This document shows, in pieces, positions 18,272-41,304 of a stretch of 64,000 nucleotides of DNA (within the stretch, counting starts at the first letter, position 1; every line of letters starts with the position of its first letter). Origin of the DNA: a virus; IMG/VR virus record IMGVR_UViG_3300025853_008930, positions 1-64,000 of that record, one strand, 5' to 3'. Below the pieces are notes generated by a model. That model was given only the letters and a program-made list of their open reading frames with translations, was not told the DNA's origin and did no database searches. The position numbers and the translations under genes were made by a program.

Positions 18272-20281
18272 TCACCCCTGTAATAGCCAATGAGTAGTTA
18301 CTTCACAAAGCGAGCAAGTTCTAGGCATGACAGTTGCTTCTACAACAATTGGCCCCTTATCTTCGGCTATTGGGAAATTATTAGCAGTTAAGAAGTAGTT
18401 TTGGAAGTTTAGTTTTATGTTTTCTCCGGTTGATTTAGTAAATACTAATTCAATTGTGCTATTATTACCATTAGCAACAGAATTTTCTGTATTGTTTATT
18501 AATTCATTATACAGTAAATCATCAGTAACATGACCAGTAAAAGATATTTCATATGTTCTTTGTGCAGGGATGGCTTCTTGTATAGTCTTACTACCGACTC
18601 CCAAGAATCTTCTATCTTGTAGATTGTTATTCATGGTTAGAGTAAGGGTATTTATTTTTAAGAAACTCTCACCAAAGCACTTGAACACTCCATCGGAAAA
18701 GAAAAATGGTTCTCTTAGTTCCGGTATTGAAGCATAATTCAAGAATGAAGTTTCATCAGTAATGCCTCTTCTAGCATCATAACTTTCTGTTTTTTCTAAT
18801 GTGTGAACATTTCTAGTGTTTGCATTGACAGTCATTTTAACTTCTTCATTTTCATTAGCAGTTATTGTTAGAGTATTAACTCTACAGCCTCTAGCAATCT
18901 TAACGAAGTTGGTGTCTTCATTATCGTTATCAGTATTTGTTCTAAAGGTGTTAGAAGAAGGTAACTTGCTTAATACCTGTTCTAAAGCAAATGAAGGTAG
19001 TAAATCTCCATCTTGTTCTGCAAAGGTATATTCAATGGCATTTTGTAACTTGCCTCCATTCAAAGAAAAAGCACCCAATGGGTCTAAGTCTCCAAATGTT
19101 TCTGTTGCAGGATTTACCGGAGGAGTCATAACTGTTCCTACGCTTCTGTGAATAATTGGCCCTGTTTCGGTTACTGAATTATAATCAATGTAAAGTTTGT
19201 TAGAAGCACCTACGAAGGCTGTTGGGGCTGAACCACTAGGCGCACTTTCGCTAAGGCTATTATCAGCACCTATGTTTCCAATATCTACATCTGTGCATTT
19301 TCCTAAGAAATAATACAACCATGTTCCGTGATTTGCTACTAAATTAATATCAGCCGCACCTGCTGTTTCTATTCCTTTGTATTGATAAGTAAAGTTTCTA
19401 GTGCTTCCTAGTGAAAGATTAGTTTGTTTCATTTCGATTTCTGTTGTTGGGAAAGTAAGTGATTCTACAATTCCTAGCCATGTATCTGCTAGTAGTCTTT
19501 TACCAGTAGCGGTTGAAGTAGTTGTTCCTACGGTCATTGATGTAATTGAAAGTCCTGTATCTGTTGTGGCTGAACCTCCTAATCCTGTAATTGTTGTAGC
19601 AATTCCGTTTGCCCCTCCGTGGTCATTAGTAACAGTAACAACAGCCCCGTTTCTAGTGACTGTTAAATCATCTAAAGTATCTACAGCAATAGCAAAAATA
19701 GCGGCATATTCTTCTCTTGTATTGTCCGACGAAGAATGTATTTGTGCTTCTGCAACAACACCGGAACCAGTATGTTGAGTATATGTTGCGCTATTATCAT
19801 GGTCAATAAAAGCGGCTCTTTCTGTAGCACTACCGCCATCAGCCGCCAATGTTCTAAATACAACAGCAGTATCGTCATAATCTGCTTTAACATCCGAATT
19901 AAAAGTTATAACAGTTACAGCCGCAGTATGTGTTGTTCCCGAAGCCGCTTTTTCAGCAGGACATGGTGCGCCATATGATTCTAAAACAAAGTAGTCATTG
20001 CTTGCTAGTGTTGCTACTGCGGGAGAAAAGGAGATAGTAGTATCTGTATTAGCGGTAACTCTATGCATTCCTTGAAAAACATTAGAAACATTATACCTCT
20101 TAAGAATACACCCAACATATAGATTATTTACTAAAGCAAAATTTCCGGTTATATCACCGTGTAAGGTAAAGGTTGTTTTATTTGACCCTGCGCTTCCAGT
20201 TGTTATTTTACAATAAAAGTCCAATTCCGGCACTTTTGTTATGCTTGCTCCACTTCCTAAAAATATATCTTGTGCTACCAT
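18272..20281 (-). CDS. Major tail (tube) protein with extra N-terminal domains
   Basis: Tube-like C-terminal half (LPSFALEQ, GCRVNTLTI, RTYEISFTG); position before the chaperone and tape measure genes. Confidence 0.7.
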   Translation of the reverse strand: MVAQDIFLGSGASITKVPELDFYCKITTGSAGSNKTTFTLHGDITGNFALVNNLYVGCILKRYNVSNVFQGMHRVTANTDTTISFSPAVATLASNDYFVLESYGAPCPAEKAASGTTHTAAVTVITFNSDVKADYDDTAVVFRTLAADGGSATERAAFIDHDNSATYTQHTGSGVVAEAQIHSSSDNTREEYAAIFAIAVDTLDDLTVTRNGAVVTVTNDHGGANGIATTITGLGGSATTDTGLSITSMTVGTTTSTATGKRLLADTWLGIVESLTFPTTEIEMKQTNLSLGSTRNFTYQYKGIETAGAADINLVANHGTWLYYFLGKCTDVDIGNIGADNSLSESAPSGSAPTAFVGASNKLYIDYNSVTETGPIIHRSVGTVMTPPVNPATETFGDLDPLGAFSLNGGKLQNAIEYTFAEQDGDLLPSFALEQVLSKLPSSNTFRTNTDNDNEDTNFVKIARGCRVNTLTITANENEEVKMTVNANTRNVHTLEKTESYDARRGITDETSFLNYASIPELREPFFFSDGVFKCFGESFLKINTLTLTMNNNLQDRRFLGVGSKTIQEAIPAQRTYEISFTGHVTDDLLYNELINNTENSVANGNNSTIELVFTKSTGENIKLNFQNYFLTANNFPIAEDKGPIVVEATVMPRTCSLCEVTTHWLLQG

Positions 20282-22136: not shown

Positions 22137-24116
22137 TCAAACCTCTCTTTCTAATATATTTAGTTCTTCTTTGATGTCAAATATAAAATCTCTTGCCTTT
22201 CTTGTTGATTCTAAATCGGGTTGAGAATCTTTCTTATATGCCATTTGTAATTTTCTTAAGTTCACATTTTTATATTTTATAGTGCTAGGTTGTCCGTTAA
22301 ACTTACCTAAAGAGTATGTATAACTAGTTGAAGTTTCTCCATCGGAATCTTTTGCAGTAAAGGCGAATCTATCAATAACTAGTCTAAAGTCCATAACTTT
22401 AGTAACATCTCCTATGGTTTCACCAAAGTATTCTTTGTCTAATACTTTATTTGGGCTATTGTATAATACTTCTAACATTTCACTAGTTTCAGTTTCTTCT
22501 GCATCCCTAGCAGGTAAACCCTTATCGCTTTCTTTTATTCTCTTATCAATATATCTTCTTTTATTAGCCAAATAATTTTTAAATATTGGCTTCAAAAGAT
22601 TTCCGCTATCTTTACCTTTACCTAACTCAATTTCATATCTACTTTTATCGAAATCCGGCAACAACAATAGATGCTTTGCTTTTAACGGGTTATTCTTTGG
22701 ATTGTTATGTCCTATAACTCTCATTTGACTCAACATATCTCTATGTGTTGTAACAGTGTCGGCCACATTACCAAAACCTTTACCGCCTATTTTTACTTCA
22801 CTAAGAACTCTTTTTAAGTCGGCTATTGTGCCATCTTCAATAGGTTCATCAACAATCTCTTTTAAAAAATCCTTAACGAAACCTTGTGTTTTTTCTTTTT
22901 CTTTTTCGGTAGTTTCTTCTATTATTTTCTCTTCTTTTTCTCTAAAGTCTTTCTCTTCTTCGGGGCTTTCGAGTCTATCAAACATTGCATCTACTTCTTC
23001 TTCCGTAGCATCTTTAATGTATGATTCAATATCTCTCAATGCAGGGTTTCTTTCTAAAAGCAATTCTCTTAAACTATCAATATACTCATCGAATACAGGC
23101 TTAAGTTTATCTGTTTCTCTTTTAAGTTTAGAATATTCTAATGCCGCTTTTTTTCCTTCTTTCGTGTCTTCGTATTGTTTTCCAAATATTATTTCTAAAC
23201 TATCTGCCGCAGTTTTTTGTTCTCTACCTGTTGTTGTGGCTATGGGTATAACTTGTTCTCTATAAAGAGGGCTACTTTCCAAAGATAACTTTTCCTCATC
23301 TCCGCCCCCAATAGTCATTTTAGTTTCTTGTTGGATTTTTTTACTTGTTATAATGTTAGGAAGTAATATATTCCTTAAGTCTTTTTCTTCTCTAACAAAA
23401 CCTGCTGTGATTAATGCCGACGCTTTTGGATAATACTGTTGATAAGTTACCCTTTTTCCGTCTTCTTCTACCTCAACATCTTTTGTTAAATTGTCTACAT
23501 AGGCATCATTACTTAATTCATTAAATGTAATGATTTTGGTTTCTTTGTTTTTGTTTCTGTGAGACTTCTTTTCAACATTGAAAATGCTATTGCCACTAGA
23601 ATCTTTATATTTTTTAAGTTCGTCTAACTCACTTTTAGTCAAACCCTGTCTAATCTTAGATTGACTTTCTTTTGTTGCTTTGGTATCTCTAAAAACACTT
23701 GCTAGTTTTTGACTTGTTAAATCTTTTAATTTTATTTGTGCGAGTTCCTTTCCGATTTCATTAGTTTTTAAAAAATCTTCAATGTCGTCTTTTAGACGCA
23801 GTTGAAACCTATCGTCATCTATTATACCTTTTGAAACCACATTTCCCTTTTTGTTTAATTGACTTAAAAGCGATTTGTTCTTTAATGCTGACAATGCTTT
23901 TTTATAAACAGTTATGAATTTAGTTTCATCATATGCTTCAGCACCAAAGTTCTTTTCTTTTACATCATCGGGGTCTACTCTTTCAGCGTAATCTTCTGTT
24001 CCTTTTCCGGTAGAACCTTCCGCTAAATAATCAAACAAAATGAACTCGGCAAATCTTTGAGTTGCTATAGGTTGAGTCCAAGATAAAGGACTACCTTTAG
24101 CATCTTTTATTCTCAA
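22137..24116 (-). CDS. Large K/E-rich hypothetical protein
   Basis: 659-aa ORF, TTG start after GGGTGA. Confidence 0.6.
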   Translation of the reverse strand: MRIKDAKGSPLSWTQPIATQRFAEFILFDYLAEGSTGKGTEDYAERVDPDDVKEKNFGAEAYDETKFITVYKKALSALKNKSLLSQLNKKGNVVSKGIIDDDRFQLRLKDDIEDFLKTNEIGKELAQIKLKDLTSQKLASVFRDTKATKESQSKIRQGLTKSELDELKKYKDSSGNSIFNVEKKSHRNKNKETKIITFNELSNDAYVDNLTKDVEVEEDGKRVTYQQYYPKASALITAGFVREEKDLRNILLPNIITSKKIQQETKMTIGGGDEEKLSLESSPLYREQVIPIATTTGREQKTAADSLEIIFGKQYEDTKEGKKAALEYSKLKRETDKLKPVFDEYIDSLRELLLERNPALRDIESYIKDATEEEVDAMFDRLESPEEEKDFREKEEKIIEETTEKEKEKTQGFVKDFLKEIVDEPIEDGTIADLKRVLSEVKIGGKGFGNVADTVTTHRDMLSQMRVIGHNNPKNNPLKAKHLLLLPDFDKSRYEIELGKGKDSGNLLKPIFKNYLANKRRYIDKRIKESDKGLPARDAEETETSEMLEVLYNSPNKVLDKEYFGETIGDVTKVMDFRLVIDRFAFTAKDSDGETSTSYTYSLGKFNGQPSTIKYKNVNLRKLQMAYKKDSQPDLESTRKARDFIFDIKEELNILEREV

Positions 24117-24128
24117 AAAGAATCACCC

Positions 24129-24812
24129 TCACATTAACCATTTAGCCCAAGCCGCACCCTTTTGTATAGCACTACCTAAACCTAATCCGCTTTGTGGAGG
24201 TTCGTAACTCATCTGTCCTTGAGCATCTATCCAATATGGCCTTCCATAATTATCAGTTCCCGATGGTGGAATAGGATAGCCACTACCATTATTCATAGCA
24301 CCTTGCATTTGATTATATTGTTGCATGTTACCTGTTAATCCTGCTACTGCGGAAGCGGCTGTTGGTTGTGCCATTTGTTGCATTTGCATACCACCGCCAC
24401 CACTAAATCCTTGAGATTCTAGGTATTGTTGCTTTGCTAACTTTCTTTGATTGACAACTTCTGTATTGATTGCCGCATCTAATATGTTCTTAATATCTAA
24501 CTCAATGTTTTCTTGAGTAATCTTTTCAAATTCTCTCATTGCATCATTGTGTATCTTTAACATACCTGTTGTAGAATCAGTTGTAAATTGTAACTTAGCC
24601 AACATCTTGCTAACTACTCTTTCTACAACATCTTCCATAAGTTTCTCCATCTGTGTCAAAAACATTTGACCATGATATTGAAAGAACTCTTCGACATGAT
24701 TATCTTGTAAAGAAAGTAAGTTATTTACATTCTTGAATTGTTGGTCACTTTGTTGCTGAACTGCACCTAAAACTGTGCCATTACTTGTTCCGAATATTCC
24801 CATGTTACTCAC
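24129..24812 (-). CDS. Q/M/G-rich protein with coiled coil and amphipathic C-terminus
   Basis: ORF composition; ends GAAWAKWLM. Confidence 0.6.
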   Translation of the reverse strand: MSNMGIFGTSNGTVLGAVQQQSDQQFKNVNNLLSLQDNHVEEFFQYHGQMFLTQMEKLMEDVVERVVSKMLAKLQFTTDSTTGMLKIHNDAMREFEKITQENIELDIKNILDAAINTEVVNQRKLAKQQYLESQGFSGGGGMQMQQMAQPTAASAVAGLTGNMQQYNQMQGAMNNGSGYPIPPSGTDNYGRPYWIDAQGQMSYEPPQSGLGLGSAIQKGAAWAKWLM

Positions 24813-25437
24813 CCTTCGCTCCCTTTAATAAATGATTTATCCTTTCTGTATTTAATTGTATTTCAGTATTCAATCTTACTATTTCTGCCAGTTGTGTTTC
24901 TTCGTCTGCTATTGGAGTTGGTGGCGTTATAGTCCATCCCATGCTAGTCAGCCTCATAACATCTTCTTTTGTTAAGTCAGTTATTTGTTGTCTTTTCAAC
25001 ATAGAGGGCATTTTCGCTTTAGGAATAAATGCCTTGAAATCTAATCCGTGTTCATCTGCTAATATTTGTTGTTGTAGCATTTCCATTTGCTTATGGATAG
25101 CCGCATGTCTAGGACAATAAGTTCCTCTAAGTGGTCTTCCTTTCTCTACTTTATCTAATGGTATTGGTGGTCTTAGATAATCACCGGACTCCCAAACATG
25201 GTGAGTTCCGCATACTACACATCTATCTTTAAAGTTAAACTTGTGACCATATCTTAAGAAAAGAATTTTTTTCTTTTCCGGCAACAATACTTTTCTTATT
25301 TCTTTCATTTGCTTCTTTGGCTTTAGCGCATCAAACTTATAATCTTCAATTGGCCCAATTGCTCTATACTGTTGTAGTTTAGGCAAAAAAGCGTTCTTTG
25401 CTTGTTGCGTGTTTATCAAATTCGGTTGCTGATACAT
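24805..25437 (-). CDS. Zinc-finger and coiled-coil protein
   Basis: CVVC...YCPRH; C-terminal heptads. Confidence 0.6.
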   Translation of the reverse strand: MYQQPNLINTQQAKNAFLPKLQQYRAIGPIEDYKFDALKPKKQMKEIRKVLLPEKKKILFLRYGHKFNFKDRCVVCGTHHVWESGDYLRPPIPLDKVEKGRPLRGTYCPRHAAIHKQMEMLQQQILADEHGLDFKAFIPKAKMPSMLKRQQITDLTKEDVMRLTSMGWTITPPTPIADEETQLAEIVRLNTEIQLNTERINHLLKGAKGE

Positions 25438-25440
25438 CTT

Positions 25441-26007
25441 TCATTCCTCTAAATTCTTTCTCCAATTCTTCGATTCTCTTACTTCTTCTACTTGTTCGGG
25501 TGTAAGATACATAGCAGGGTGAATATTTGCTCCCATCATACCGAATCTTTCAATTATTTCTTTTTGCTTTTCATTAACAAATTGCTTTACTTGTGGATTT
25601 TCTTCAAAGACATATATTTCAATATGAGAGGGGTCGCCATATTGACCTAAAGCATGAAAATAAATAACATCTGTAGGAAGATTAAATAAATAATCTTCCC
25701 CTAATCTTTCTTTATCTTGTTCATCAATACCATAATATGTAATTGCATCAACTTGATTATCTATTGCCCCTCCCCCAATATCTTCTCCTCCAAAATCACC
25801 ATCTATTAAATCTCTCAATATCATATCTTTAGCAATATTGACTGAATATTCTTTTGACATATAAATAATCATACGCTGAGAATCCGAAAATACCTTACTG
25901 TCTTTCCCGTATATTCTTTTAAGTTCATCTAATATTTCTTTGGTTAAATCACCAAGATATTTTTGAGCCGAAGCCCTATCCATTCTTTTTAATATATTGA
26001 ACCACAT
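25441..26007 (-). CDS. WxxILK-leader accessory protein
   Basis: Starts MWFNILK. Confidence 0.6.
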   Translation of the reverse strand: MWFNILKRMDRASAQKYLGDLTKEILDELKRIYGKDSKVFSDSQRMIIYMSKEYSVNIAKDMILRDLIDGDFGGEDIGGGAIDNQVDAITYYGIDEQDKERLGEDYLFNLPTDVIYFHALGQYGDPSHIEIYVFEENPQVKQFVNEKQKEIIERFGMMGANIHPAMYLTPEQVEEVRESKNWRKNLEE

Positions 26008-26012
26008 AATAA

Positions 26013-26675
26013 TCAATAATCCTTTATCATACTAGTTATTCCTTTATACACCATTTCGGGGTCGGACTTTGCTGATACTATGTATTTGAAACAAGGTATG
26101 CCCTTGTCATTCAACTGCCTCATCCCGTATGTAAATGGTTCAAATATTTCATGTTTATCTATGGGCTTATCGCTTTTATATTTCTCTCCCCACATATCAT
26201 ATTTGTTAGCCCATATTCCGACAGCCATAGGATAATCCACTTCTTTTTTCTTTTTACCCGAAGGCCACCTATCTGCTACAATGGTATCTACTAAAAACTT
26301 CCATGCTAATTGATGGTCTAAATTAGAAGGTGAATCTAAATGTCTATGGTCTATCATGAAAATAATATACTTTACTCTACGCTTCTGCATATCTTTAACC
26401 CATTCTTTCCAATAGATTGCTTCGCCTCCTAAGTCAGCACTTTTAATTGTATGAGAATTTCCATCAATCTTAACATTCTTTCTAGTGGCTCTATGTAAGC
26501 CAACCGTTCTTTCGCTTATTGTAGGAACTTCCCCCCTTGTTCTAAGTTGGTGGCTTAAGGTTGTTTTACCAACCATTGTAGAACCGTAAACTCCAAAGTT
26601 AATTGCATGAACTTTTTTGTAAAAACCTATTATGGCTTCACCAACAAGAATAGCAAAGCCTGTCATTATGGACAT
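26013..26675 (-). CDS. Ras/Arf-superfamily small GTPase with hydrophobic N-terminal helix
   Basis: G1 GSTMVGKT, G2 T, G3 DLGG, G4 NKYD, G5 SAK. Confidence 0.85.
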   Translation of the reverse strand: MSIMTGFAILVGEAIIGFYKKVHAINFGVYGSTMVGKTTLSHQLRTRGEVPTISERTVGLHRATRKNVKIDGNSHTIKSADLGGEAIYWKEWVKDMQKRRVKYIIFMIDHRHLDSPSNLDHQLAWKFLVDTIVADRWPSGKKKKEVDYPMAVGIWANKYDMWGEKYKSDKPIDKHEIFEPFTYGMRQLNDKGIPCFKYIVSAKSDPEMVYKGITSMIKDY

Positions 26676-26680
26676 TTTAT

Positions 26681-27202
26681 TCACCCAAAATATTTTTCTA
26701 ACATTTTTTTCATATGCTCTTTTGTTTCCATTACATCTTCATCTAGCGATAGTTCCATCCCTGCCGCACTTCTAAAATACCCTGTAATTTTAGGATAGTC
26801 ATATTCTGTTGCATCATCTATTAAATTCATTAACTCCGTCGCTTTCTTTTTTACTACTTTGTCGGGTAGATATTTATATTCTATATCTTCGTCGTGAGAA
26901 ATACCTCTAGGCATTCCCATTTCTTTTTTGTTTCTTATGTTTCTATTAACAGTGTATTCTCCATCGCCTTCTAGCCATTTTTCTTTATTTGTTTTCAAGG
27001 CTTGCTTTATCATGGGTTTTCCTTCATCTTTTATTGAATAAATTTTAGAACCAAAAAAAGCATAAATTAATGCTTCATCTAAAGAAGGAGTCCAATATCG
27101 AGTATCTTCTTTTCCCTGTGTTCCTTGAAACAACTTACTGTAAGCATTAACATAATCTTTTGATTGTATTTTGTAAGGTGCTTTTAAAATATTTTTCCAC
27201 AT
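26681..27202 (-). CDS. WxxILK-leader protein, possible ADP-ribosyltransferase fold
   Basis: MWKNILK; LFQGT...YWTPSLDEALIYA...GEY resembles the HGT/Y-T..A..YA/E ART motifs. Confidence 0.4.
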   Translation of the reverse strand: MWKNILKAPYKIQSKDYVNAYSKLFQGTQGKEDTRYWTPSLDEALIYAFFGSKIYSIKDEGKPMIKQALKTNKEKWLEGDGEYTVNRNIRNKKEMGMPRGISHDEDIEYKYLPDKVVKKKATELMNLIDDATEYDYPKITGYFRSAAGMELSLDEDVMETKEHMKKMLEKYFG

Positions 27203-27539
27203 ATTAATGCCCCCAAATATCCATTTTATTCACCTATGAATACATCTAAACCTACAAAATCCCCGTCTATTTGTTTTTCATAGTTCCAAAAAATCTCACC
27301 GTTAAACTCATCTTCATCCGCATATCTCAATTTCCAACCTAACTCATTTAATTTTTTATTTAGTTTATCCCAATCTACATCTAAAGGAAACAACAAATCA
27401 ATATCTTTTGGGTCTTCCTTTTTACCAACCGAACCCACTATTTTAGGTTTAAAATATTCTAAATCTTTTAACAATTGATTAGCAATAGAGACATAATTTT
27501 TAAGAATATTTTTCCACATATTAATGCCCCCAAATATCC
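27188..27539. repeat. 35-bp perfect direct repeat (27188-27222 and 27505-27539)
   Basis: AATATTTTTCCACATATTAATGCCCCCAAATATCC occurs twice. Confidence 0.9.
27226..27519 (-). CDS. WxxILK-leader minimal nucleotidyltransferase (Pol-beta superfamily)
   Basis: MWKNILK; IVGS...KDIDLL...LDVF catalytic pattern. Confidence 0.65.
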   Translation of the reverse strand: MWKNILKNYVSIANQLLKDLEYFKPKIVGSVGKKEDPKDIDLLFPLDVDWDKLNKKLNELGWKLRYADEDEFNGEIFWNYEKQIDGDFVGLDVFIGE

Positions 27540-27739
27540 TTAGCCCTCTCTATAATCCAACCCATTATATTGATGTCAAAGACTCCCATGATATTACCTA
27601 TCAAAAACGATGATAAGGCCGCACAAGAACCCCAAAAATACATCTTCATTTTTATAAAGAACATATCTGCTGAATGCGCCCGACTTTGATTATACACATA
27701 GTCGGACTCACTAAAGCCCATTATGTCGCCAAAGACCAA
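27521..27739 (-). CDS. Small membrane protein
   Basis: Hydrophobic stretch YFWGSCAALSSFLIGNIMGVF. Confidence 0.6.
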   Translation of the reverse strand: MVFGDIMGFSESDYVYNQSRAHSADMFFIKMKMYFWGSCAALSSFLIGNIMGVFDINIMGWIIERAKDIWGH

Positions 27740-27750
27740 TCAACCACAAC

Positions 27751-28158
27751 CTATTGTTGTATAGTCGCTAAGAATTCATTACCTATTGTATTGTCGTCGT
27801 ATTCTTCGTTAGCCATTACTCCGCCTCGCCATGATTCACGCCTTACTGTTCCGTATTGCTTCATGCTTTCTTGTAGTTTAGCCTTGATTTGTTCTTCCCT
27901 TTGTAGTCTTTGGAAGTGATTTTCTATTTGTCTGTCTAGTAACCTAATCTCAATCTTATCATTTAGTGATAGGTCAAACAATGCTTTCATAACCATTATT
28001 CCACCAACTGTAATAAGACCAAACAAAACAGAATGTGCTAATGCCGTATAAGGAAAGTTCATTCCATATGTAGAATAGAAATATACATTCGCTCCGCTAA
28101 CTGTTCCGACAAATAAAATTGTCATAATCAACCTTGTATCTTGACTTAGTGCCGCCAT
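27751..28158 (-). CDS. Two-TM membrane protein with coiled coil
   Basis: Two hydrophobic helices, then a heptad region. Confidence 0.65.
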   Translation of the reverse strand: MAALSQDTRLIMTILFVGTVSGANVYFYSTYGMNFPYTALAHSVLFGLITVGGIMVMKALFDLSLNDKIEIRLLDRQIENHFQRLQREEQIKAKLQESMKQYGTVRRESWRGGVMANEEYDDNTIGNEFLATIQQ

Positions 28159-29540: not shown

Positions 29541-30878
29541 TCACTGTATGTTTGTTATCTTTCCTTGACCCTTGAAGAAGGAACATCCGACTTCACCAAT
29601 TGTTCGATACAAAGCCCTGTTACCTAGAGTTCCAACACCGAATGGGTTTCCATTGGCGATACCATCTTCAAAGTATTGTGTTGGTTTCATAACCGATAGC
29701 CACAAATGGTCTGTATCAAGGAATAGTAAATCACTTAGTTTTGTTGAAGCACTACCTGTTTGGCACATATCCTTAACAGGGATTAGTGGAATATCGTAGT
29801 ATGTTGCTACTCTAAATCCAACTTCTTGACCTTTAACTCCTCTAACACCGTTTACAGTTGGCACGACTTCTTTTCTGTCCATGAATCTTTCTTGGCTTTG
29901 TAGTAAGTCAGCAAGTGCTTGAATAGTATCATAACCTGTTAGAATAACCTTTGGAGAACCACCGGCTAGTCTTAGGTTTCTAATCATATCATTTAGTCTT
30001 GTTAGAGTTAGTGAACGAACATCTCCTGCCGCATATCCACTACCAAAGTCTACTTCTGCATCAAGGAAAGATGCCGCAGTAAATCTCTCACTACCGTAAA
30101 TCTTTCCTAGAGCGTTAGAAGCGGAAGTTGTATCAGTAGCGATAACTCCACCGTCAATTGCTAGTAGTTCTGCTCTTGAGGTAATAACCTTGTTTAGAGA
30201 AGTATAGTTGTTTCCGATATTTGGCATAGCGGATGATTCACCATAATGCTCTAGTGGCATAACCAACATTTTGTTTTGAACTTCAGCGTGATGCTTACCC
30301 ATATCTTCACGCATTTGCGCTCTAATATCGCCAATACCATCATCAATTTGTGCCATTTCCATAGCAAGTTCACTGAAATCAAATTGATGTGCAACTACTT
30401 TAGGACTCATGTTGAGTTGTGCATAAGTTGGTGCAATTGGGCCAAGTCCATCTTGTGCTGTTGAAAGTCCTGCATTTTCAGGAACACCACCAATCATATC
30501 TGCTCTTGGGCTATCCGAACCTAGTTCTGCTAAGTTTTCTGTTCCGCTTGCATCAACAGTAAACAAGTTACCGCTTCCACCGGCAGGTCGTGACTTTAGA
30601 ACTCTCCAACCACTAGAAGAATATGGCCTCTTTGAAATCATTGAAAGAGCATTAACTTCTCTATTCAACATTGACCATACTTTCTGTCCGTAAACAATGT
30701 TGTAAAGTGCTGATACATCACTAACAGCACTACCGGAGAATGATGGAGAACCATCATGTCCTGTGTGTATTCCACCAATAGCACCGGCTTGCTTCAAAAG
30801 AGCGTTACCGGCAGGTAGATTGTTTATTCCATATGTGCTTGCTTCTAAATCTGCGATTGTGTTAATATAACCTGTCAT
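29541..30878 (-). CDS. Major capsid protein (HK97 fold)
   Basis: 445 aa directly after protease/scaffold; resembles archaeal tailed-virus MCPs; highly biased codon usage. Confidence 0.85.
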   Translation of the reverse strand: MTGYINTIADLEASTYGINNLPAGNALLKQAGAIGGIHTGHDGSPSFSGSAVSDVSALYNIVYGQKVWSMLNREVNALSMISKRPYSSSGWRVLKSRPAGGSGNLFTVDASGTENLAELGSDSPRADMIGGVPENAGLSTAQDGLGPIAPTYAQLNMSPKVVAHQFDFSELAMEMAQIDDGIGDIRAQMREDMGKHHAEVQNKMLVMPLEHYGESSAMPNIGNNYTSLNKVITSRAELLAIDGGVIATDTTSASNALGKIYGSERFTAASFLDAEVDFGSGYAAGDVRSLTLTRLNDMIRNLRLAGGSPKVILTGYDTIQALADLLQSQERFMDRKEVVPTVNGVRGVKGQEVGFRVATYYDIPLIPVKDMCQTGSASTKLSDLLFLDTDHLWLSVMKPTQYFEDGIANGNPFGVGTLGNRALYRTIGEVGCSFFKGQGKITNIQ

Positions 30879-30879
30879 C

Positions 30880-32112
30880 TTAAATTCCTCCTACCATTTT
30901 GTGAATGTCCGACCAATCCATTTCAGCCATCTCATCCATACTTGGGAGTTTAATTGCGGATTCTTCTTGAGCCTTTAGGATAGTTTCCTTTTCTGCTGTC
31001 AAAGATTTCCTTAGTTGTGTAAATTCATCTTTAAGAGAAGCAATCTCGCTTTGTGCATCATAGTTTTGCTTTGCGATAACATTCTCTCTTGTTGAAACTT
31101 CTCTTGCGAATCTTGCTTCAAAAGACTTCTTTAGGTTGTCATAAGCAAGTGATTCAAGTTGTTCTTGTCGGAAAGCCTCATATGCTTTCTCAATGTTTCC
31201 AACTGACAAATCAAGAGTATCAAATTCTCCATTGTTAAATGCCTTTACAACAGGCATGTCGGATGAAGTTGGCTTACCGTTGTTAATAACAATACGGTCA
31301 GCAGGTTCTCCAATTTGGTTTCCTGCACCATCAAGAGTTCTCAAGTAAGCCTTTGCTTCTTCATCTTGGTATTCTCCCATTCCCTTCTCATCTTCTGCAT
31401 CCATGTCTTCTTCATCTTCTTTGTCCATGCCGTAGTCTCCTCTCTCCATGTCATCATCAGCCATTTCTGTTTCTTTCATACCCTTTTCATCAAGAGCCTC
31501 TTCTTCTTTACGAAGCGTATTTACTTCTTCTAGCAAAGTGTCTAGTTCTGCTAGGGCTTTTTCCAGTTTATCACTCATATTATTGTCTCCTTTATCTTGT
31601 TTCAAAATATCGAATCTCGCTTCGGGGTTAATTCCTTTTTCGCATATAGTAATTTCATGCAATTCTAACTTGCTGATTTCATTATACTCACCCAAGTTTT
31701 CATTACTTTTCTTTACTTTTTGGAGGGCTTGACCTCCTATGCTAAAAGACCTTAATGACCCTTTGCGAATGTTTCTGCCAACTTCTTTGGCTTTTTCTAT
31801 ATCATCTCGTAGTTTAATTACTACAAAGAAACCAACATCATCTACTTCAGATTTCCAAAGTCTACCTGTGCTGTCTCTATAAGAATCCACAACTTCTCCA
31901 ACTTGAACATTGGAATGGTTTGTCATGACATTTCTAAATTTAGAATCTTTCATGAACTTAACAACTGCTTCTTTCAAAGCAGATAGTGTAATTAAATCAT
32001 TTTGCTTATCAACAATTTCAATGCTAGCATAGCCGCCAATCATTAAGTCGTCACTTCTAGCCTTAAGGATGGTAAACCCATCATTCCTAGTTGCTAGAAC
32101 TGCCGATGCCAT
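30880..32112 (-). CDS. Prohead protease (HK97 family) fused to scaffold
   Basis: IGGYAS..VDKQND, H (MTNHS), SFSIGG and LHEITICEKGINPEA motifs; acidic coiled-coil C-terminal half. Confidence 0.85.
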   Translation of the reverse strand: MASAVLATRNDGFTILKARSDDLMIGGYASIEIVDKQNDLITLSALKEAVVKFMKDSKFRNVMTNHSNVQVGEVVDSYRDSTGRLWKSEVDDVGFFVVIKLRDDIEKAKEVGRNIRKGSLRSFSIGGQALQKVKKSNENLGEYNEISKLELHEITICEKGINPEARFDILKQDKGDNNMSDKLEKALAELDTLLEEVNTLRKEEEALDEKGMKETEMADDDMERGDYGMDKEDEEDMDAEDEKGMGEYQDEEAKAYLRTLDGAGNQIGEPADRIVINNGKPTSSDMPVVKAFNNGEFDTLDLSVGNIEKAYEAFRQEQLESLAYDNLKKSFEARFAREVSTRENVIAKQNYDAQSEIASLKDEFTQLRKSLTAEKETILKAQEESAIKLPSMDEMAEMDWSDIHKMVGGI

Positions 32113-32171
32113 TTCGCTCAAAGGGAAAAAATTTCCTTTTAATATATAATACACACGGTTATTTTAAACAA

Positions 32172-34721
32172 TTAATCCTCTTTTGGAGGTAATTCAAGAC
32201 TACTATATTTATCTTCATAAATATTCCATAATCCTTTATCAGCATCAGTATCAGCAGGTTTTTGTTCATAGCCTGTCCATGCTAGCCACATTTTCTTTCC
32301 TTTAACTTCAAGCATTCTAACATGAAGTTTAGTTTCAAACTTATTACCCTCTAAGAAATATTCGTGATAGCCTTCCTTTTGAACACCTAACTTAACATCA
32401 CCACTATCAATCAATTTACGCTTGGATATGTTCTTAGCAACAATAGCAGGGAACTTCCCTGCCTTGCCAAATAGTTCAAAGACATCATCTTGTGAATCTA
32501 ATCTAACCATCCAATTAATGCTTTCATCACCTAACTTCATTACTATGTTTAGGCTATCGTCGTCTCTAAGATATATTTTAAACTCGCCACTTCTGTATTT
32601 TTCAGGTGTCTCATATTCTTTCTTGATAGTGTCCATTAATATCTTATCATGCTCGGCAAACAACTTTTTTGTTTTAGCATCAAAGGATATTCCATCTCTA
32701 TTTTCAAACCAATCCTTAACTCTACTTTCTTTGCTTTCTAATATATCTTGATATTCTTTTTTATTATTCTTTACCAAAAAGTTGTGAACTTCTTTAGGAG
32801 TCTTTGCTCCTTTCTCTTTCAAGTAATTAAATATAGCAACAGTAAGTTTAGATTGTTTCGTTTTCATTATCTCTTCTGCTTGTTCTTTCCACAAGTCTAA
32901 ATCCATTAAGGCATTTTTAGCCATTAGATTATCTTGCTCAAAGCCATAGATAGTAAAACCATCCATATCGCTCTTAATTATAATGCTAGCCTCACCGTGA
33001 ATATGGTCAGTAATTACAATGCCTTTCTCTACTTCTTCTACATTATATTTGAGAGACTTGTCAGTATCATTGATTAGCATTTGTAATGTAACTAATTTAT
33101 CCGGTGTTTTACTTTCTGCAATCTCAGTTATCTTTGCGGAATAAACTACAGGCTTACCCTTGACTTCTTTTACCTTATCAATAGAGACTCTAACTACTTC
33201 TCCAACATCTGCTGAAACTTTAGTGTTAGTAGCACTACCAACTTCAAGATAGTTTACTCCTTCTATCTTTTCATCTCCTTCTTCAACCGGCCCTGCCCCT
33301 AATTTGTAAGAAAAGTTAGAACCGTTTTTCTTTTTATCAAGAACAATTAAATCTAGTTCTACAAATGGTTTCCAACGAATCCACTTAGGATTCTTTTTCG
33401 TTCCCAAGAAATATGTAGATGTAGAATCTTTAATCATAGCCCCTTCTGCTGTTGGTATTTCCATAATTTTCTTAGCATATTCTTCAACATCTTTTAGGCT
33501 GTCTGCAACCCTAGTATCTTTTTTAGATGGGAATGTTAAGTCCTCACTAGAATGTATAGAATAGTTGTTAAACATTATTTGCATTCTATTTTGTAGCGTA
33601 TCTTCCATGAGGTTTTCTTCATTGTGTCTCATAATGTCAAACACATGAATTCTAACCTTGCCTTCTCTTTTTCCCTCTAAGTATTCTGCGGCTTCTTTTC
33701 TTTTAAGAGAATCTTCTCCGTCAAATAAAACTAAAGAAGCATCTAAGATACAATCACCAAAATGTTTTTTCTTTAGTTCCTCAACTGCTTCTTTACACTT
33801 TGATGTAATGTCTTTTCCTGTATAATCATAGACTTTTATATTCTTATCTATTTTATGTAATTGAATTCTAAAACCATCGTATTTTTCTTGAACATAAAAC
33901 TCACCACTAAATCCCTTTAGTTCGTTCATATCTTCTATTGTAAATATTCTATACATTGGTTTGTTAGGGATTATGAAATCACTTTGGGCTTTTTCTTCAT
34001 CGGACTTCTTTTCTTTTAGAATAACTTTATCGTCTTGTTCCTTATCTTTAGTGGCTTTTTCTTCATCCATATCTGTATCTATGTCTTCTAATTCAGCCCA
34101 CTCTTCTTTAGTGTTTTTAGATAAGAATATTAATTCTAACATATTCATAGCGGCTTTTACTTTAGCCTCTACTTTTTTAGAGTCTTTACCATCACCATAA
34201 TGTTCTATAATGTAAAGTGCAACATCATCTACTTCTAGGTCTAATCCCATAAGTCCTTCTGTGATGTCATCCGGTTTCATATCTTTAATTGAATATGCTT
34301 CTTTTGGTAGTGCTTTATCATCTTCTCTAATAGCATAATGAACAAACTTAATCATAAGTTCGGGTGATTCTAATAATGCTTCTAATACATTGCCTTTGAA
34401 TTTTTTAGCGAAGGGGTCACTAACTTCTTCCGAAGAATACCTAAGTGCCTTTATTGCTTCATACAATTTTTCAGCATTATTTGTGCTAACATCGGAGACA
34501 TCATCCGCCTCTAATAAGTCATCATCAATATAATCCTTGAGTTCATTTGAAAGAGCATCCGTCATTTCATATGCGTCTTTAATTCTATTTACTGCGTTTC
34601 TCCATTTAGAACCGTATTCCTTTGGGTCGGTTCTTGCTGAAAGATAAGCGACTCTCGTTCTTTCAAAGAGTCTTAGAATATCTGTGGATATTGACTTATC
34701 CTTCTCAATAAGGAGAGGCAT
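32172..34721 (-). CDS. ATP-dependent DNA ligase with N- and C-terminal extensions
   Basis: EKYDG (motif I), FDIM, EGAMIK, WIRWKP, OB fold. Confidence 0.85.
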   Translation of the reverse strand: MPLLIEKDKSISTDILRLFERTRVAYLSARTDPKEYGSKWRNAVNRIKDAYEMTDALSNELKDYIDDDLLEADDVSDVSTNNAEKLYEAIKALRYSSEEVSDPFAKKFKGNVLEALLESPELMIKFVHYAIREDDKALPKEAYSIKDMKPDDITEGLMGLDLEVDDVALYIIEHYGDGKDSKKVEAKVKAAMNMLELIFLSKNTKEEWAELEDIDTDMDEEKATKDKEQDDKVILKEKKSDEEKAQSDFIIPNKPMYRIFTIEDMNELKGFSGEFYVQEKYDGFRIQLHKIDKNIKVYDYTGKDITSKCKEAVEELKKKHFGDCILDASLVLFDGEDSLKRKEAAEYLEGKREGKVRIHVFDIMRHNEENLMEDTLQNRMQIMFNNYSIHSSEDLTFPSKKDTRVADSLKDVEEYAKKIMEIPTAEGAMIKDSTSTYFLGTKKNPKWIRWKPFVELDLIVLDKKKNGSNFSYKLGAGPVEEGDEKIEGVNYLEVGSATNTKVSADVGEVVRVSIDKVKEVKGKPVVYSAKITEIAESKTPDKLVTLQMLINDTDKSLKYNVEEVEKGIVITDHIHGEASIIIKSDMDGFTIYGFEQDNLMAKNALMDLDLWKEQAEEIMKTKQSKLTVAIFNYLKEKGAKTPKEVHNFLVKNNKKEYQDILESKESRVKDWFENRDGISFDAKTKKLFAEHDKILMDTIKKEYETPEKYRSGEFKIYLRDDDSLNIVMKLGDESINWMVRLDSQDDVFELFGKAGKFPAIVAKNISKRKLIDSGDVKLGVQKEGYHEYFLEGNKFETKLHVRMLEVKGKKMWLAWTGYEQKPADTDADKGLWNIYEDKYSSLELPPKED

Positions 34722-39430: not shown

Positions 39431-39658
39431 TCAAAATGGAATATTCTCTTTCTTACCTCTCCTCTTTTGTGGGGGTAAGATAACATCGGGAACATCATTA
39501 GATGCTCTTATTGCTTTATGAGTTGTATCCGGTGGTAGTCCACCAACAGAAAAATCACGATTCTTCGTGGTCTTTCTAGTATCATTTGCATTCTGTGTTC
39601 TAACTTTCGCTAATTCTTTCTTTAGTCTAATCTCTTTCTGTCTATTATCTTCTGTCAT
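39431..39658 (-). CDS. Hypothetical protein
   Basis: Coupled to the portal stop. Confidence 0.55.
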   Translation of the reverse strand: MTEDNRQKEIRLKKELAKVRTQNANDTRKTTKNRDFSVGGLPPDTTHKAIRASNDVPDVILPPQKRRGKKENIPF

Positions 39659-41304
39659 TAACCTGTCCTCCTTTCACTCCTTCTATCTACATTTTGATTA
39701 CCTGCGTCTTCCGGTAATCCGCTTAATCTTTTATCCGGCCCAACACTCATAGAAGGTTTATTTCTAGTAGCCGGTGGATTTTCTTGTGGCTTACTACCGC
39801 CACCTTCTGCAAACATTCTTGTTTGTTCATCTAAATCTCTTTGGTCTAAATTAGAACCTGCTAGTGGGTCTTTTTCTATGGGTCTTCCATCATCATCCAT
39901 TTGTTGTTCATCTTCTTTTGGTTCGGGTTTCTTGTAAGTAAAGTTACCATCCTCATCCATATCAACTTCAAAGCCTAAGTTCTTTATTGATGCCGCAATA
40001 TTGACTTCAATCTCTTTCTTTCTTAGTCCTGCAATCTCATCTTCTTCTTCGCTAGGAGGCAACTTCAACTTCCAATCTGTAATGCCAAATTGCTTTACAA
40101 GATAAGGAAATACATATTCATTGTAAACATTCTGTGCCATTTGAACTGCTCTATTAGTTACAAGTATTTGCATACCTTCATTGTTTAAGCCGCCACTTGT
40201 AGTATTATCAGCCATGAAGACTTTACTGACACCATAGAACGCTGATATTCTATCTCTCAAATCATCCTTAACAGAAATATAATCCATTTCTTTTAGGCTA
40301 TCCATGAACTTAATCCACTCAACAGCACCTTTACCGCCTTCTGCTTCTATACCCATAACAGGAATAAAGTGCGGGTCTGCCTCCATCTTTTCTTTTACTC
40401 CTCTCCAAAAGGCTCTCATTGAATCCATGTTTCTAGTTTGAACCGCTAACAAACCTCTTGGCATTCTGCTCTTAGTATAGGCTGAATTGACATAGTTCTC
40501 CATAGCAATTAAAGTCATGATATGATTGTAAAGTGTAATTACAGGGGAAAAACCGTAAAGTCTTGAAGGACTATACTTACTAAAATGTAATACTTCTCCT
40601 TCGATGAAATACTGTTCATCACCTTTTGCTCGATTGACATAATGAATAGGCATAAGAGGAGAGCCACAAGTTTCACAACTATCGTGTGGTTCTGTTGAAA
40701 TAATATCTCTATGATGAACACAAGTAAATCCTTTGTTACCCTTTACGCCATCTTCATCGGCATAAATAAACATAGTAACAGGGTCGCCACGATACACTTC
40801 CTTAACACGGTGCATTCTAATTTTACCATTACCATCCAAGAAATATTCTTTGACCATAACTATGTATGCGTCATCCATAATATTCAAATCGTCTTCCAAT
40901 TCCTTCAACACATCAATAAATAATTGCTCGGATGAGTTTACATAACCCTCTAAGAACTTTTCAGCATATTCTAATTGCTTAACATCGGGTATTTTTAAAT
41001 CAGTAGAGCCACATCTTGAACACTCTTGAACAGGTCTTGTGTGGGTTTTTCCGCAATTGTTACACTTTGCTTCAAATGCTTTTTCCCAAACATAGCCTCT
41101 TCTGTAGACTTCCTGCTTTAGTTGAGTTATACAAGTTCTAACAATTACTGATTGTTGAACCATAGAATAGATGATGGGGGCTGTCATCATGTAATTGTTC
41201 TGCCTTTCTTGAATACCCATGTTGTAGATATTCCTGTCAGCAGGTTTCGGAGTAGTGCGCCTGAAAAGATTAGTGAAAGAGAACCGCCTTCTTTTTTCTG
41301 CCAC
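39658..41304 (-). CDS. Portal protein with zinc-ribbon insertions
   Basis: YGFSP, RISAFYGVS and VFPYLVKQF portal-like motifs; size and position. Confidence 0.8.
   Translation of the reverse strand: MAEKRRRFSFTNLFRRTTPKPADRNIYNMGIQERQNNYMMTAPIIYSMVQQSVIVRTCITQLKQEVYRRGYVWEKAFEAKCNNCGKTHTRPVQECSRCGSTDLKIPDVKQLEYAEKFLEGYVNSSEQLFIDVLKELEDDLNIMDDAYIVMVKEYFLDGNGKIRMHRVKEVYRGDPVTMFIYADEDGVKGNKGFTCVHHRDIISTEPHDSCETCGSPLMPIHYVNRAKGDEQYFIEGEVLHFSKYSPSRLYGFSPVITLYNHIMTLIAMENYVNSAYTKSRMPRGLLAVQTRNMDSMRAFWRGVKEKMEADPHFIPVMGIEAEGGKGAVEWIKFMDSLKEMDYISVKDDLRDRISAFYGVSKVFMADNTTSGGLNNEGMQILVTNRAVQMAQNVYNEYVFPYLVKQFGITDWKLKLPPSEEEDEIAGLRKKEIEVNIAASIKNLGFEVDMDEDGNFTYKKPEPKEDEQQMDDDGRPIEKDPLAGSNLDQRDLDEQTRMFAEGGGSKPQENPPATRNKPSMSVGPDKRLSGLPEDAGNQNVDRRSERRTG

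Follow-up and report, generated by a model that had tools for sequence, protein, structure and literature searches.

The region 24129-28158 of a 64,000-nucleotide stretch of viral DNA (the window; positions 1 to 64,000 of IMG/VR record IMGVR_UViG_3300025853_008930) encodes a divergent Arf/ArvA-like small GTPase and four partner proteins whose genes are conserved together across distant viral clades. The window comprises the first 64 kb of a linear 80.7-kb virus record that is estimated to be 86% complete. We consider it highly probable (roughly 0.85) that the five genes form a conserved, membrane-associated GTPase cassette with one shared function. The region holds eight tightly packed open reading frames on the minus strand, with intergenic gaps of -8 to +23 nucleotides. 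With three inserted genes set aside, the order is two-transmembrane (two-TM) protein, one-TM protein, GTPase, Cys/His protein and Gln/Gly-rich protein, as follows.

27751-28158, minus strand: core gene 1, a 135-residue two-TM protein with hydrophobic segments at residues 10-28 and 43-61 and a charged, heptad-like C-terminal tail.
27521-27739, minus strand: core gene 2, a 72-residue one-TM protein with a hydrophobic segment at residues 38-56 and a short amphipathic end.
26013-26684, minus strand: core gene 3, the Arf/ArvA-like small GTPase of 220-223 residues, recognized by its motifs, fold and profile comparison.
24805-25437, minus strand: core gene 4, a 210-residue Cys/His protein with CxxC...GR...TYCPxH and a helical C-terminal half.
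24129-24812, minus strand: core gene 5, a 227-residue Gln/Gly-rich protein with a helical core that includes ITQENI and a Gly-rich, hydrophobic C-terminal end.

The cassette genes abut or overlap in an operon-like arrangement inside the late genes, and the Cys/His gene overlaps the Gln/Gly-rich gene by 8 nucleotides. The GTPase probably starts at the ATG at 26675, as in its relatives.

The GTPase family was found to contain three deep clades. Clade A includes the window GTPase (220 residues, DxGGE), clade B comprises P0133-like proteins (240 residues, DxGGQ) that are 30-35% identical to clade A, and clade C comprises P0136-like proteins (241 residues, DIGGH as in Sar1). Further groups consist of single lineages (P0132, P0138) and of remote sequences on short metagenome contigs. 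Among 80 viral contigs retrieved via the GTPase, the order of the five genes was unchanged wherever the DNA reached, with about 75 loci in agreement. In clade A, the capsid gene is followed by 3-4 small genes, the two-TM gene (found in 77 loci), the one-TM gene (78 loci), the GTPase, Cys/His and Gln-rich genes, and then later genes. The reverse test gave the same result: the capsid protein retrieved 80 contigs, and each of the 32 that extend 5.5 kb or more downstream carried the five core genes in unchanged order. Because the GTPase- and capsid-anchored clade A loci are all colinear relatives, the distant clades provide the stronger evidence.

In clade B, two genes lie ahead of the GTPase, one for a protein of 170-210 residues that has TM segments and a Gln-rich helix, the next for a 77-85-residue hydrophobic protein; the GTPase is followed by a 290-360-residue Cys/His protein and a 190-230-residue protein with 10-17% Gln. 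The clade B cassette is flanked upstream by a 2200-2360-residue protein, or by proteins of 941 and 411 residues, and downstream by a helix-turn-helix protein. The same five genes follow a thermosome gene in clade C. Across clades B and C, a 170-270-residue protein with a TM segment and a Gln-rich helix occupies the position of core gene 1, and a hydrophobic protein of 72-85 residues is encoded directly before the GTPase. Thus, with the order recurring in two distant GTPase clades (30-35% identity) that have differing flanks, the five genes travel as a unit. An earlier note on this DNA had named a lack of co-conservation of the five genes among the results that would refute its reading, and the genes were co-conserved in all testable clade A loci and in clades B and C.

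The soluble partners were also compared across clades by profile methods. With a clade A Cys/His profile, hmmsearch matched, in 58 of 80 loci of clade B, the gene that immediately follows the GTPase (E<1e-3), hhalign of the clade A and clade B Cys/His proteins gave a probability of 96% (E 3.7e-9), and a Cys/His protein is found in clade C as well. For the Gln-rich proteins of clades A and B, hhalign gave an E-value of 1.2e-4 compared with 0.2-0.8 for mismatched controls, and an [ST][QA]EN[IV] motif and a Gly-rich tail are common to clades A, B and C. Judged from these profiles, the Cys/His and the Gln-rich proteins are homologous across clades. All five core genes were under purifying selection, and the GTPase was the most constrained. 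Pairwise ratios of nonsynonymous to synonymous substitution (dN/dS) in clade A were 0.06 for the GTPase, 0.11-0.17 for its four partners (0.11 for the two-TM, 0.12 for the one-TM and 0.13 for the Gln/Gly-rich protein) and 0.19 for the capsid protein, ratios that are rough because dS is near saturation (1.1-1.5).

Two further features of the clade B and C loci were observed. The thermosome (group II chaperonin) genes of clade C lie directly before the cassette on magrovirus-like contigs (L162:3250-4785, L165:2820-4481), and their best cellular matches, in metagenome-assembled genomes of Thermoplasmata, reach just 34-36% identity. In most clade B and C loci, the Gln-rich gene is followed by a sixth gene encoding 77-90 residues with two hydrophobic segments (for example, L084:10314-10571), which is absent from the window and from clade A.

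The GTPase carries G1 (GSTMVGKTT), switch-I RT60, G3 (DLGGE88), G4 (NKYD) and G5 (SAK), and all G1-G5 motif positions are invariant across 18 relatives of 70-95% identity. Among 23 diverse relatives, G34, G39, K40, D84, G87, D112, N160 and K161 are invariant and W95 is nearly so. An AlphaFold2 model (predicted local distance difference test score [pLDDT] 70, predicted template modeling score [pTM] 0.70) displayed a Ras-type alternation of strands and helices, with a helix at residues 2-25 in front. Foldseek matched this model to Rab, Ras and G-alpha chains with E-values of about 1e-8, and VIA-align returned Z scores of 15.1-13.6 at a root-mean-square deviation of about 3 A over about 160 aligned residues. 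Chains of Arf, Arl1/2/3/6/8 and Arf6 made up most of the top 36 VIA-align ranks, followed by Rag, GerdArfR1, G-alpha, mimivirus Rab and Ras-like chains at Z 13-14; as the values are close, this Arf-first ordering is suggestive rather than decisive. The five motifs and the fold (Z 13-15 overall) place the protein in the Ras superfamily.

Switch II of the window GTPase is of the Arf/Sar type (DLGGE88...W95). W95 lies 11 residues past the G3 Asp, the position of the switch-II Trp in Arf, Sar1 and G-alpha, and it aligns with the Trp of Arl3 and G-alpha. At residue 88, the position of the catalytic Gln, clades A, B and C have Glu, Gln and His (the last as in Sar1), respectively, and the P0146 lineage has Ala, which suggests that hydrolysis chemistry or regulation may differ between clades. 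Residues 4-22 (19 residues) are hydrophobic (Kyte-Doolittle 1.66) with one invariant Glu, and in every clade beta-1 follows a helix of about 24 residues that has a mean hydrophobicity of 0.6-0.9 and a hydrophobic moment of 0.2-0.45. This helix may lie flat in the membrane plane or cross the membrane, and could be a true TM anchor rather than an Arf-type amphipathic helix. A polybasic insertion, WPSGKKKKEVDYP (GKKKK, residues 143-147), is found ahead of beta-5, with R/K-rich stretches as its counterparts in clades B and C. The complete G1-G5 motifs and hydrophobic N-terminal helix that the earlier note had described were both borne out.

Comparison with curated families yielded sub-threshold matches in Pfam only (MMR_HSR1, 18.9 bits; Roc, 15.8 bits; SRPRB, 15.2 bits; Ras, 13.6 bits); Arf (PF00025, threshold 22.3 bits) was not among the matches of the window GTPase at E<=1, and NCBIfam returned only a weak small_GTP domain. 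A search of the PDB with a profile of clade A only reached Ras at an E-value of 0.08. With a profile of clades A, B and C, the best solved relative was 8OUN (E 1e-7, with the N-terminal helix included in the alignment), the Asgard Arf-related GTPase GerdArfR1 (bioRxiv 10.1101/2024.02.28.582541), followed by Arl8 (7e-5 to 1.5e-4) and by Ras and Rab (about 5e-4 and above). The widest profile matched Arl3, Sar1, Arf1, Arl2, Arl8 and G-alpha, a result that is not independent, since this profile includes remote sequences that themselves pass the Pfam Arf threshold. The remote relatives above that threshold were P0168 (57 bits), P0182 and P0197 (36 bits), P0159 (27 bits) and P0195 (24.5 bits). SRPRB was often the second Pfam match of the remote relatives, and some were near its threshold. 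Used as queries, P0168, P0159 and P0132 gave no matches in viral contigs, and a search for longer fused forms of the GTPase (486-2000 residues) found none, which is weak evidence. Since only 80 of 1.84 billion representative proteins matched the GTPase profile at E<=1e-3, the family is narrow. Collectively, the GTPase represents a new, very divergent family with Arf/Sar-type features that falls outside Arf when judged by the curated threshold. The earlier description of a Ras/Arf-like small GTPase of relevance to small-GTPase evolution agrees with the top fold ranks of Arf and Arl chains, the remote relatives that pass Pfam Arf, and GerdArfR1 as best solved match.

The GTPase was then set against the Arf family, represented by eukaryotic Arf1, Arf6, Arl1/2/3/6/8 and Sar1 and by Asgard ArfR proteins such as GerdArfR1 (PDB 8OUN/8OUM). 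It shares with them the fold, a hydrophobic N-terminal helix before beta-1, a DxGG switch II with Trp at +11, and NKxD. However, it misses Pfam Arf, which only its remote relatives reach, it has Glu for the catalytic Gln in clade A and a polybasic insertion before beta-5, its N-terminal helix exceeds that of a typical Arf in hydrophobicity and may cross the membrane, and its gene belongs to a virus whose host is a non-Asgard archaeon. Its G5 motif, SAK, is in the style of Ras and Rab and differs from the Arf pattern. The beta subunit of the signal recognition particle receptor (SR-beta) is likewise an Arf-like GTPase with an N-terminal hydrophobic anchor, and SRPRB is the second-best Pfam match of the viral GTPase (E 0.014). 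However, the score falls short of the 25 bits needed for PF09439, no SR-alpha-like gene is found within the cassette, and SR-beta is eukaryotic.

Full-length relatives of the viral GTPase were found in only 2 of 301 sampled Thermoplasmatota genomes. In one of these genomes, a 379-residue protein (L169:988-2127) begins with a long, hydrophobic stretch of about 185 residues to which a GTPase domain (DVGGE, NKRDQW) is fused; this domain belongs to the viral family (hhalign 96.7%, E 4.5e-10). The fusion is an independent hint that fits a membrane role for the GTPase family.

For the partner proteins, the earlier note had listed a two-TM coiled-coil protein, a one-TM protein, a Zn-finger/coiled-coil protein and a Q-rich protein with an amphipathic tail. 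The two hydrophobic segments of the first and the single segment of the second were confirmed, while the coiled coil in the tail of the 135-residue protein was read by inspection only. The Cys/His protein does contain CxxC...CPxH, within which the first Cys and TYCP alone do not vary from clade to clade; the His of CPxH is nearly invariant, the second Cys is missing from some members of clade B, and an invariant Gly and a mostly conserved Arg stand ahead of TYCPxH. Zinc binding by this protein is plausible from these residues. Its spacing is CxxC-x31-CxxH, compared with CxxC-x16-CxxC in ArfGAP zinc fingers, which also carry a catalytic Arg. It matched no Pfam, PHROG or NCBIfam family. Its AlphaFold2 model (pLDDT 67.5) gave no fold match (best in Foldseek, T4 endonuclease VII at E 0.52; best in VIA-align, Z 4.3), and its score of about 0.8 in the protein atlas is noise. 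A resemblance to HNH/EndoVII proteins (CxxCG..HH...CPxH) was considered and dropped for want of support. The Cys/His protein could serve as a regulator or an effector. The Gln/Gly-rich protein contains 12% Gln and 10% Gly, in keeping with the earlier label of Q-rich, and its end is Gly-rich and hydrophobic.

Among named relatives, the GTPase is closest (79% identity) to a hypothetical protein from Poseidoniales virus YSH_150918, a member of Caudoviricetes, Magrovirales, Aoguangviridae. The window itself comes from a magrovirus (a Poseidoniales virus, Aoguangviridae-like), and from the literature only we infer that its host belongs to the Marine Group II archaea, which are abundant in the ocean. 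No match by DNA or protein was found in the "phages" collection, from which close records are possibly missing. The morphogenetic genes of the window are as follows.

39658-41304, minus strand: portal gene.
30880-32154, minus strand: prohead protease.
29541-30878, minus strand: HK97-type capsid protein.
18272-20281, minus strand: tail-tube-like gene.

Because these genes surround the cassette on the same strand, it sits within the late, morphogenetic gene block of a tailed magrovirus. The earlier placement between head and neck genes was confirmed only for the capsid gene and the tail-tube-like gene on either side. Two neighboring genes were also observed. Directly upstream of the prohead protease and inside the head gene block, positions 32172-34721 encode an 849-residue protein with an ATP-dependent DNA ligase domain (PF01068, E 1.6e-22). 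Directly after the cassette, positions 22137-24116 encode a hypervariable, Lys/Glu-rich protein of 659 residues with a detectable homologue in few of 80 otherwise colinear loci (22-25% identity; one at 84%), and the slot of this gene is filled in related loci by a gene of similar size despite undetectable homology.

The remaining three genes of the region share the N-terminal motif MW(K/F)NILK.

27226-27519, minus strand: a 97-residue "MWKNILK"-tagged protein, faintly nucleotidyltransferase-like (weak DUF6932 / NTP_transf_5).
26681-27202, minus strand: a 173-residue "MWKNILK"-tagged protein with no family match.
25441-26016, minus strand: a 191-residue tagged protein (MIIMWFNILK).
27182-27222 and 27499-27539: two copies of a 41-nucleotide direct repeat, 95% identical, that bracket the 97-residue insert.

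Among 80 GTPase-anchored loci, the 97-residue gene was present in only 2, the 173-residue gene in only 3-4 and the 191-residue gene in 3. These genes are variable inserts outside the core, and the earlier decision to set aside such "leader-tagged inserts" was sound. In 43 loci anchored on the major capsid protein, the junction between the one-TM and GTPase genes was empty in 39 and occupied in 4, and the junction between the GTPase and Cys/His genes held 200-800 bp of extra DNA in 18. Both junctions flanking the GTPase gene are hot spots for insertion. Read along the coding strand, the 41-nucleotide repeat takes in the end of the upstream gene with its stop codon as well as the opening codons of the MWKNI leader, and it looks like the footprint of a gene insertion via junction duplication.

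As for the function that the five genes share, our tentative preference, held at less than even odds, is egress or lysis. Virion release is favored because the cassette is universal in the examined loci and lies among late genes, and because the lysis system of tailed archaeal viruses is unknown; a review describes the lysis machinery of these viruses as wholly uncharacterized (PMC10791045). Late in infection, the hydrophobic N-terminal helix, perhaps with help from the polybasic loop, would keep the GTPase at the cytoplasmic side of the host membrane. In its GTP state, the GTPase would gather the two membrane proteins and the Cys/His and Gln/Gly-rich proteins into an assembly, and this assembly would deform or breach the membrane so that finished virions leave. 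Timing would come from the hydrolysis or exchange of GTP, over which the Cys/His protein may exert control. A bolder form of this proposal, which we regard as doubtful, takes the cassette for the missing machine by which archaeal tailed viruses are released, a GTP-timed breaching assembly in which an anchored Arf-like switch organizes two membrane and two soluble proteins.

The architecture of the two-TM protein fits that of holins, which are small and have 1-3 TM segments and a charged C terminus. The cassette resembles holin cassettes in that small proteins of 1-2 TM segments with a charged tail are encoded together among late genes. However, unlike holin cassettes, it has no holin or endolysin family match and no adjacent wall-degrading enzyme. 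The two-TM protein had no PHROG or Pfam holin match and no lytic enzyme is encoded adjacent to it, a miss that the diversity of holin families makes weak. We know of no holin system that contains a GTPase.

Several observations weigh against egress or lysis. No holin, endolysin or S-layer-degrading family was found among the 28 window proteins checked; the earlier statement that no holin or endolysin is recognizable in the window holds for these 28. The clade A cassette lies inside the virion gene block, which would equally fit a role in assembly. The membrane proteins are equivalent across clades by position and architecture only: between clades A and B, profile similarity was not significant for the two-TM proteins (E 0.12) or for the one-TM proteins (hhalign, E 0.078). 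The GTPase model is of medium confidence, with switch regions below a pLDDT of 50, and the hydrolysis chemistry of clade A is uncertain because Glu replaces the catalytic Gln. Membrane association of the cassette is deduced from hydrophobicity alone, and GTP hydrolysis and the contacts between the proteins are putative. A "GTPase-controlled egress module" is thus a reasonable hypothesis rather than a finding, as nothing separates lysis or egress from other membrane-directed roles. In the earlier reading of a GTPase-controlled membrane module, the co-conserved five-gene cassette and the Arf-like GTPase stood, and egress is retained as hypothesis.

Another membrane-directed role would be non-lytic remodeling, in which the cassette is a viral counterpart of vesiculation by ArvA and makes vesicles, membrane domains or an assembly compartment. 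ArvA (OapA), an Arf-like GTPase, has an amphipathic helix at its N terminus and drives the formation of vesicles in Haloferax and other Euryarchaeota; its operon also encodes ArvB and the Zn-ribbon protein ArvC, which has been proposed as its GTPase-activating protein (PMC10927574). The viral GTPase profile matched 72 of the 301 Thermoplasmatota genomes at E<=1e-5, mostly over the N-terminal half only (positions about 10-130) and in frames of mostly about 210-250 residues. One matching gene, beside a Cdc6/Orc-like gene, had the look of ArvA with a G3 motif of DTPG, and its product aligned with the viral clade A+B+C profile by hhalign at 95.7% (E 9.4e-9), with the N-terminal helix included, and with clade A alone at E 3.9e-5. 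The two systems resemble one another in an archaeal small GTPase with a helix at its N terminus, an expected action on membranes, and a nearby gene for a Zn-ribbon or, in the virus, a Cys/His protein, which the viral GTPase gene precedes. However, OapB/ArvB (PF09846) and OapC/ArvC (PF09845) were absent from the 80.7-kb record (86% complete), while control genomes (Haloferax volcanii and others) matched; thus, the virus lacks an Arv operon. The G3 motif DTPG of the ArvA-like protein also differs from the viral DxGG[E/Q/H], and membership of the GTPase in ArvABC was rejected on these two grounds. Further, the viral cassette adds two membrane proteins and a Gln-rich protein that are missing from the Arv operon, ArvA having no partner membrane proteins of this kind, and tailed viruses have no membrane and none is known to need vesicles. 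We consider this role unlikely.

Still less likely is a role in virion morphogenesis or ejection, in which the cassette would act at the head-tail junction or in tail assembly, or would supply packaged membrane proteins as a DNA conduit at entry. Its position in clade A, between the capsid and tail-tube-like genes in one co-directional late block, is consistent with this role, and the structural genes of tailed phages often include ones for hydrophobic ejection proteins. However, the cassette has other neighbors in clades B and C, Pfam and PHROG searches found no matches to structural families, and the GTPase is more constrained than the capsid protein (dN/dS 0.06 compared with 0.19). To our knowledge, no small GTPase has been described as a component of the virion or of assembly in a tailed virus.

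Least probable of these roles is host takeover or superinfection exclusion at the membrane, in which the switch would change transport, cell division or the exposure of receptors in the host; the presumed membrane location and the many membrane processes regulated by small GTPases are compatible with it, but accessory functions are usually patchy, whereas the cassette is universal in the examined loci, constrained across three deep clades and placed among late genes. A reading of the GTPase as an accessory or defense gene was rejected on the same universality and constraint.

The papers on magroviruses and Poseidoniales viruses whose text was searched make no mention of a GTPase, and the prior labels found on database entries were automatic, such as "GTPase SAR1 family protein." The cassette is a concrete, clonable candidate for the uncharacterized lysis or egress step of archaeal tailed viruses, because it is universal in the examined loci, strongly constrained and built on an Arf-like switch with a putative membrane anchor. 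These findings extend Arf/ArvA-like membrane GTPases to viruses of Thermoplasmatota-related archaea and bear on how widespread such switches were before eukaryotes. If the cassette is indeed a release machine, Arf-type membrane machinery would operate in a virus-host system outside Asgard archaea and eukaryotes.

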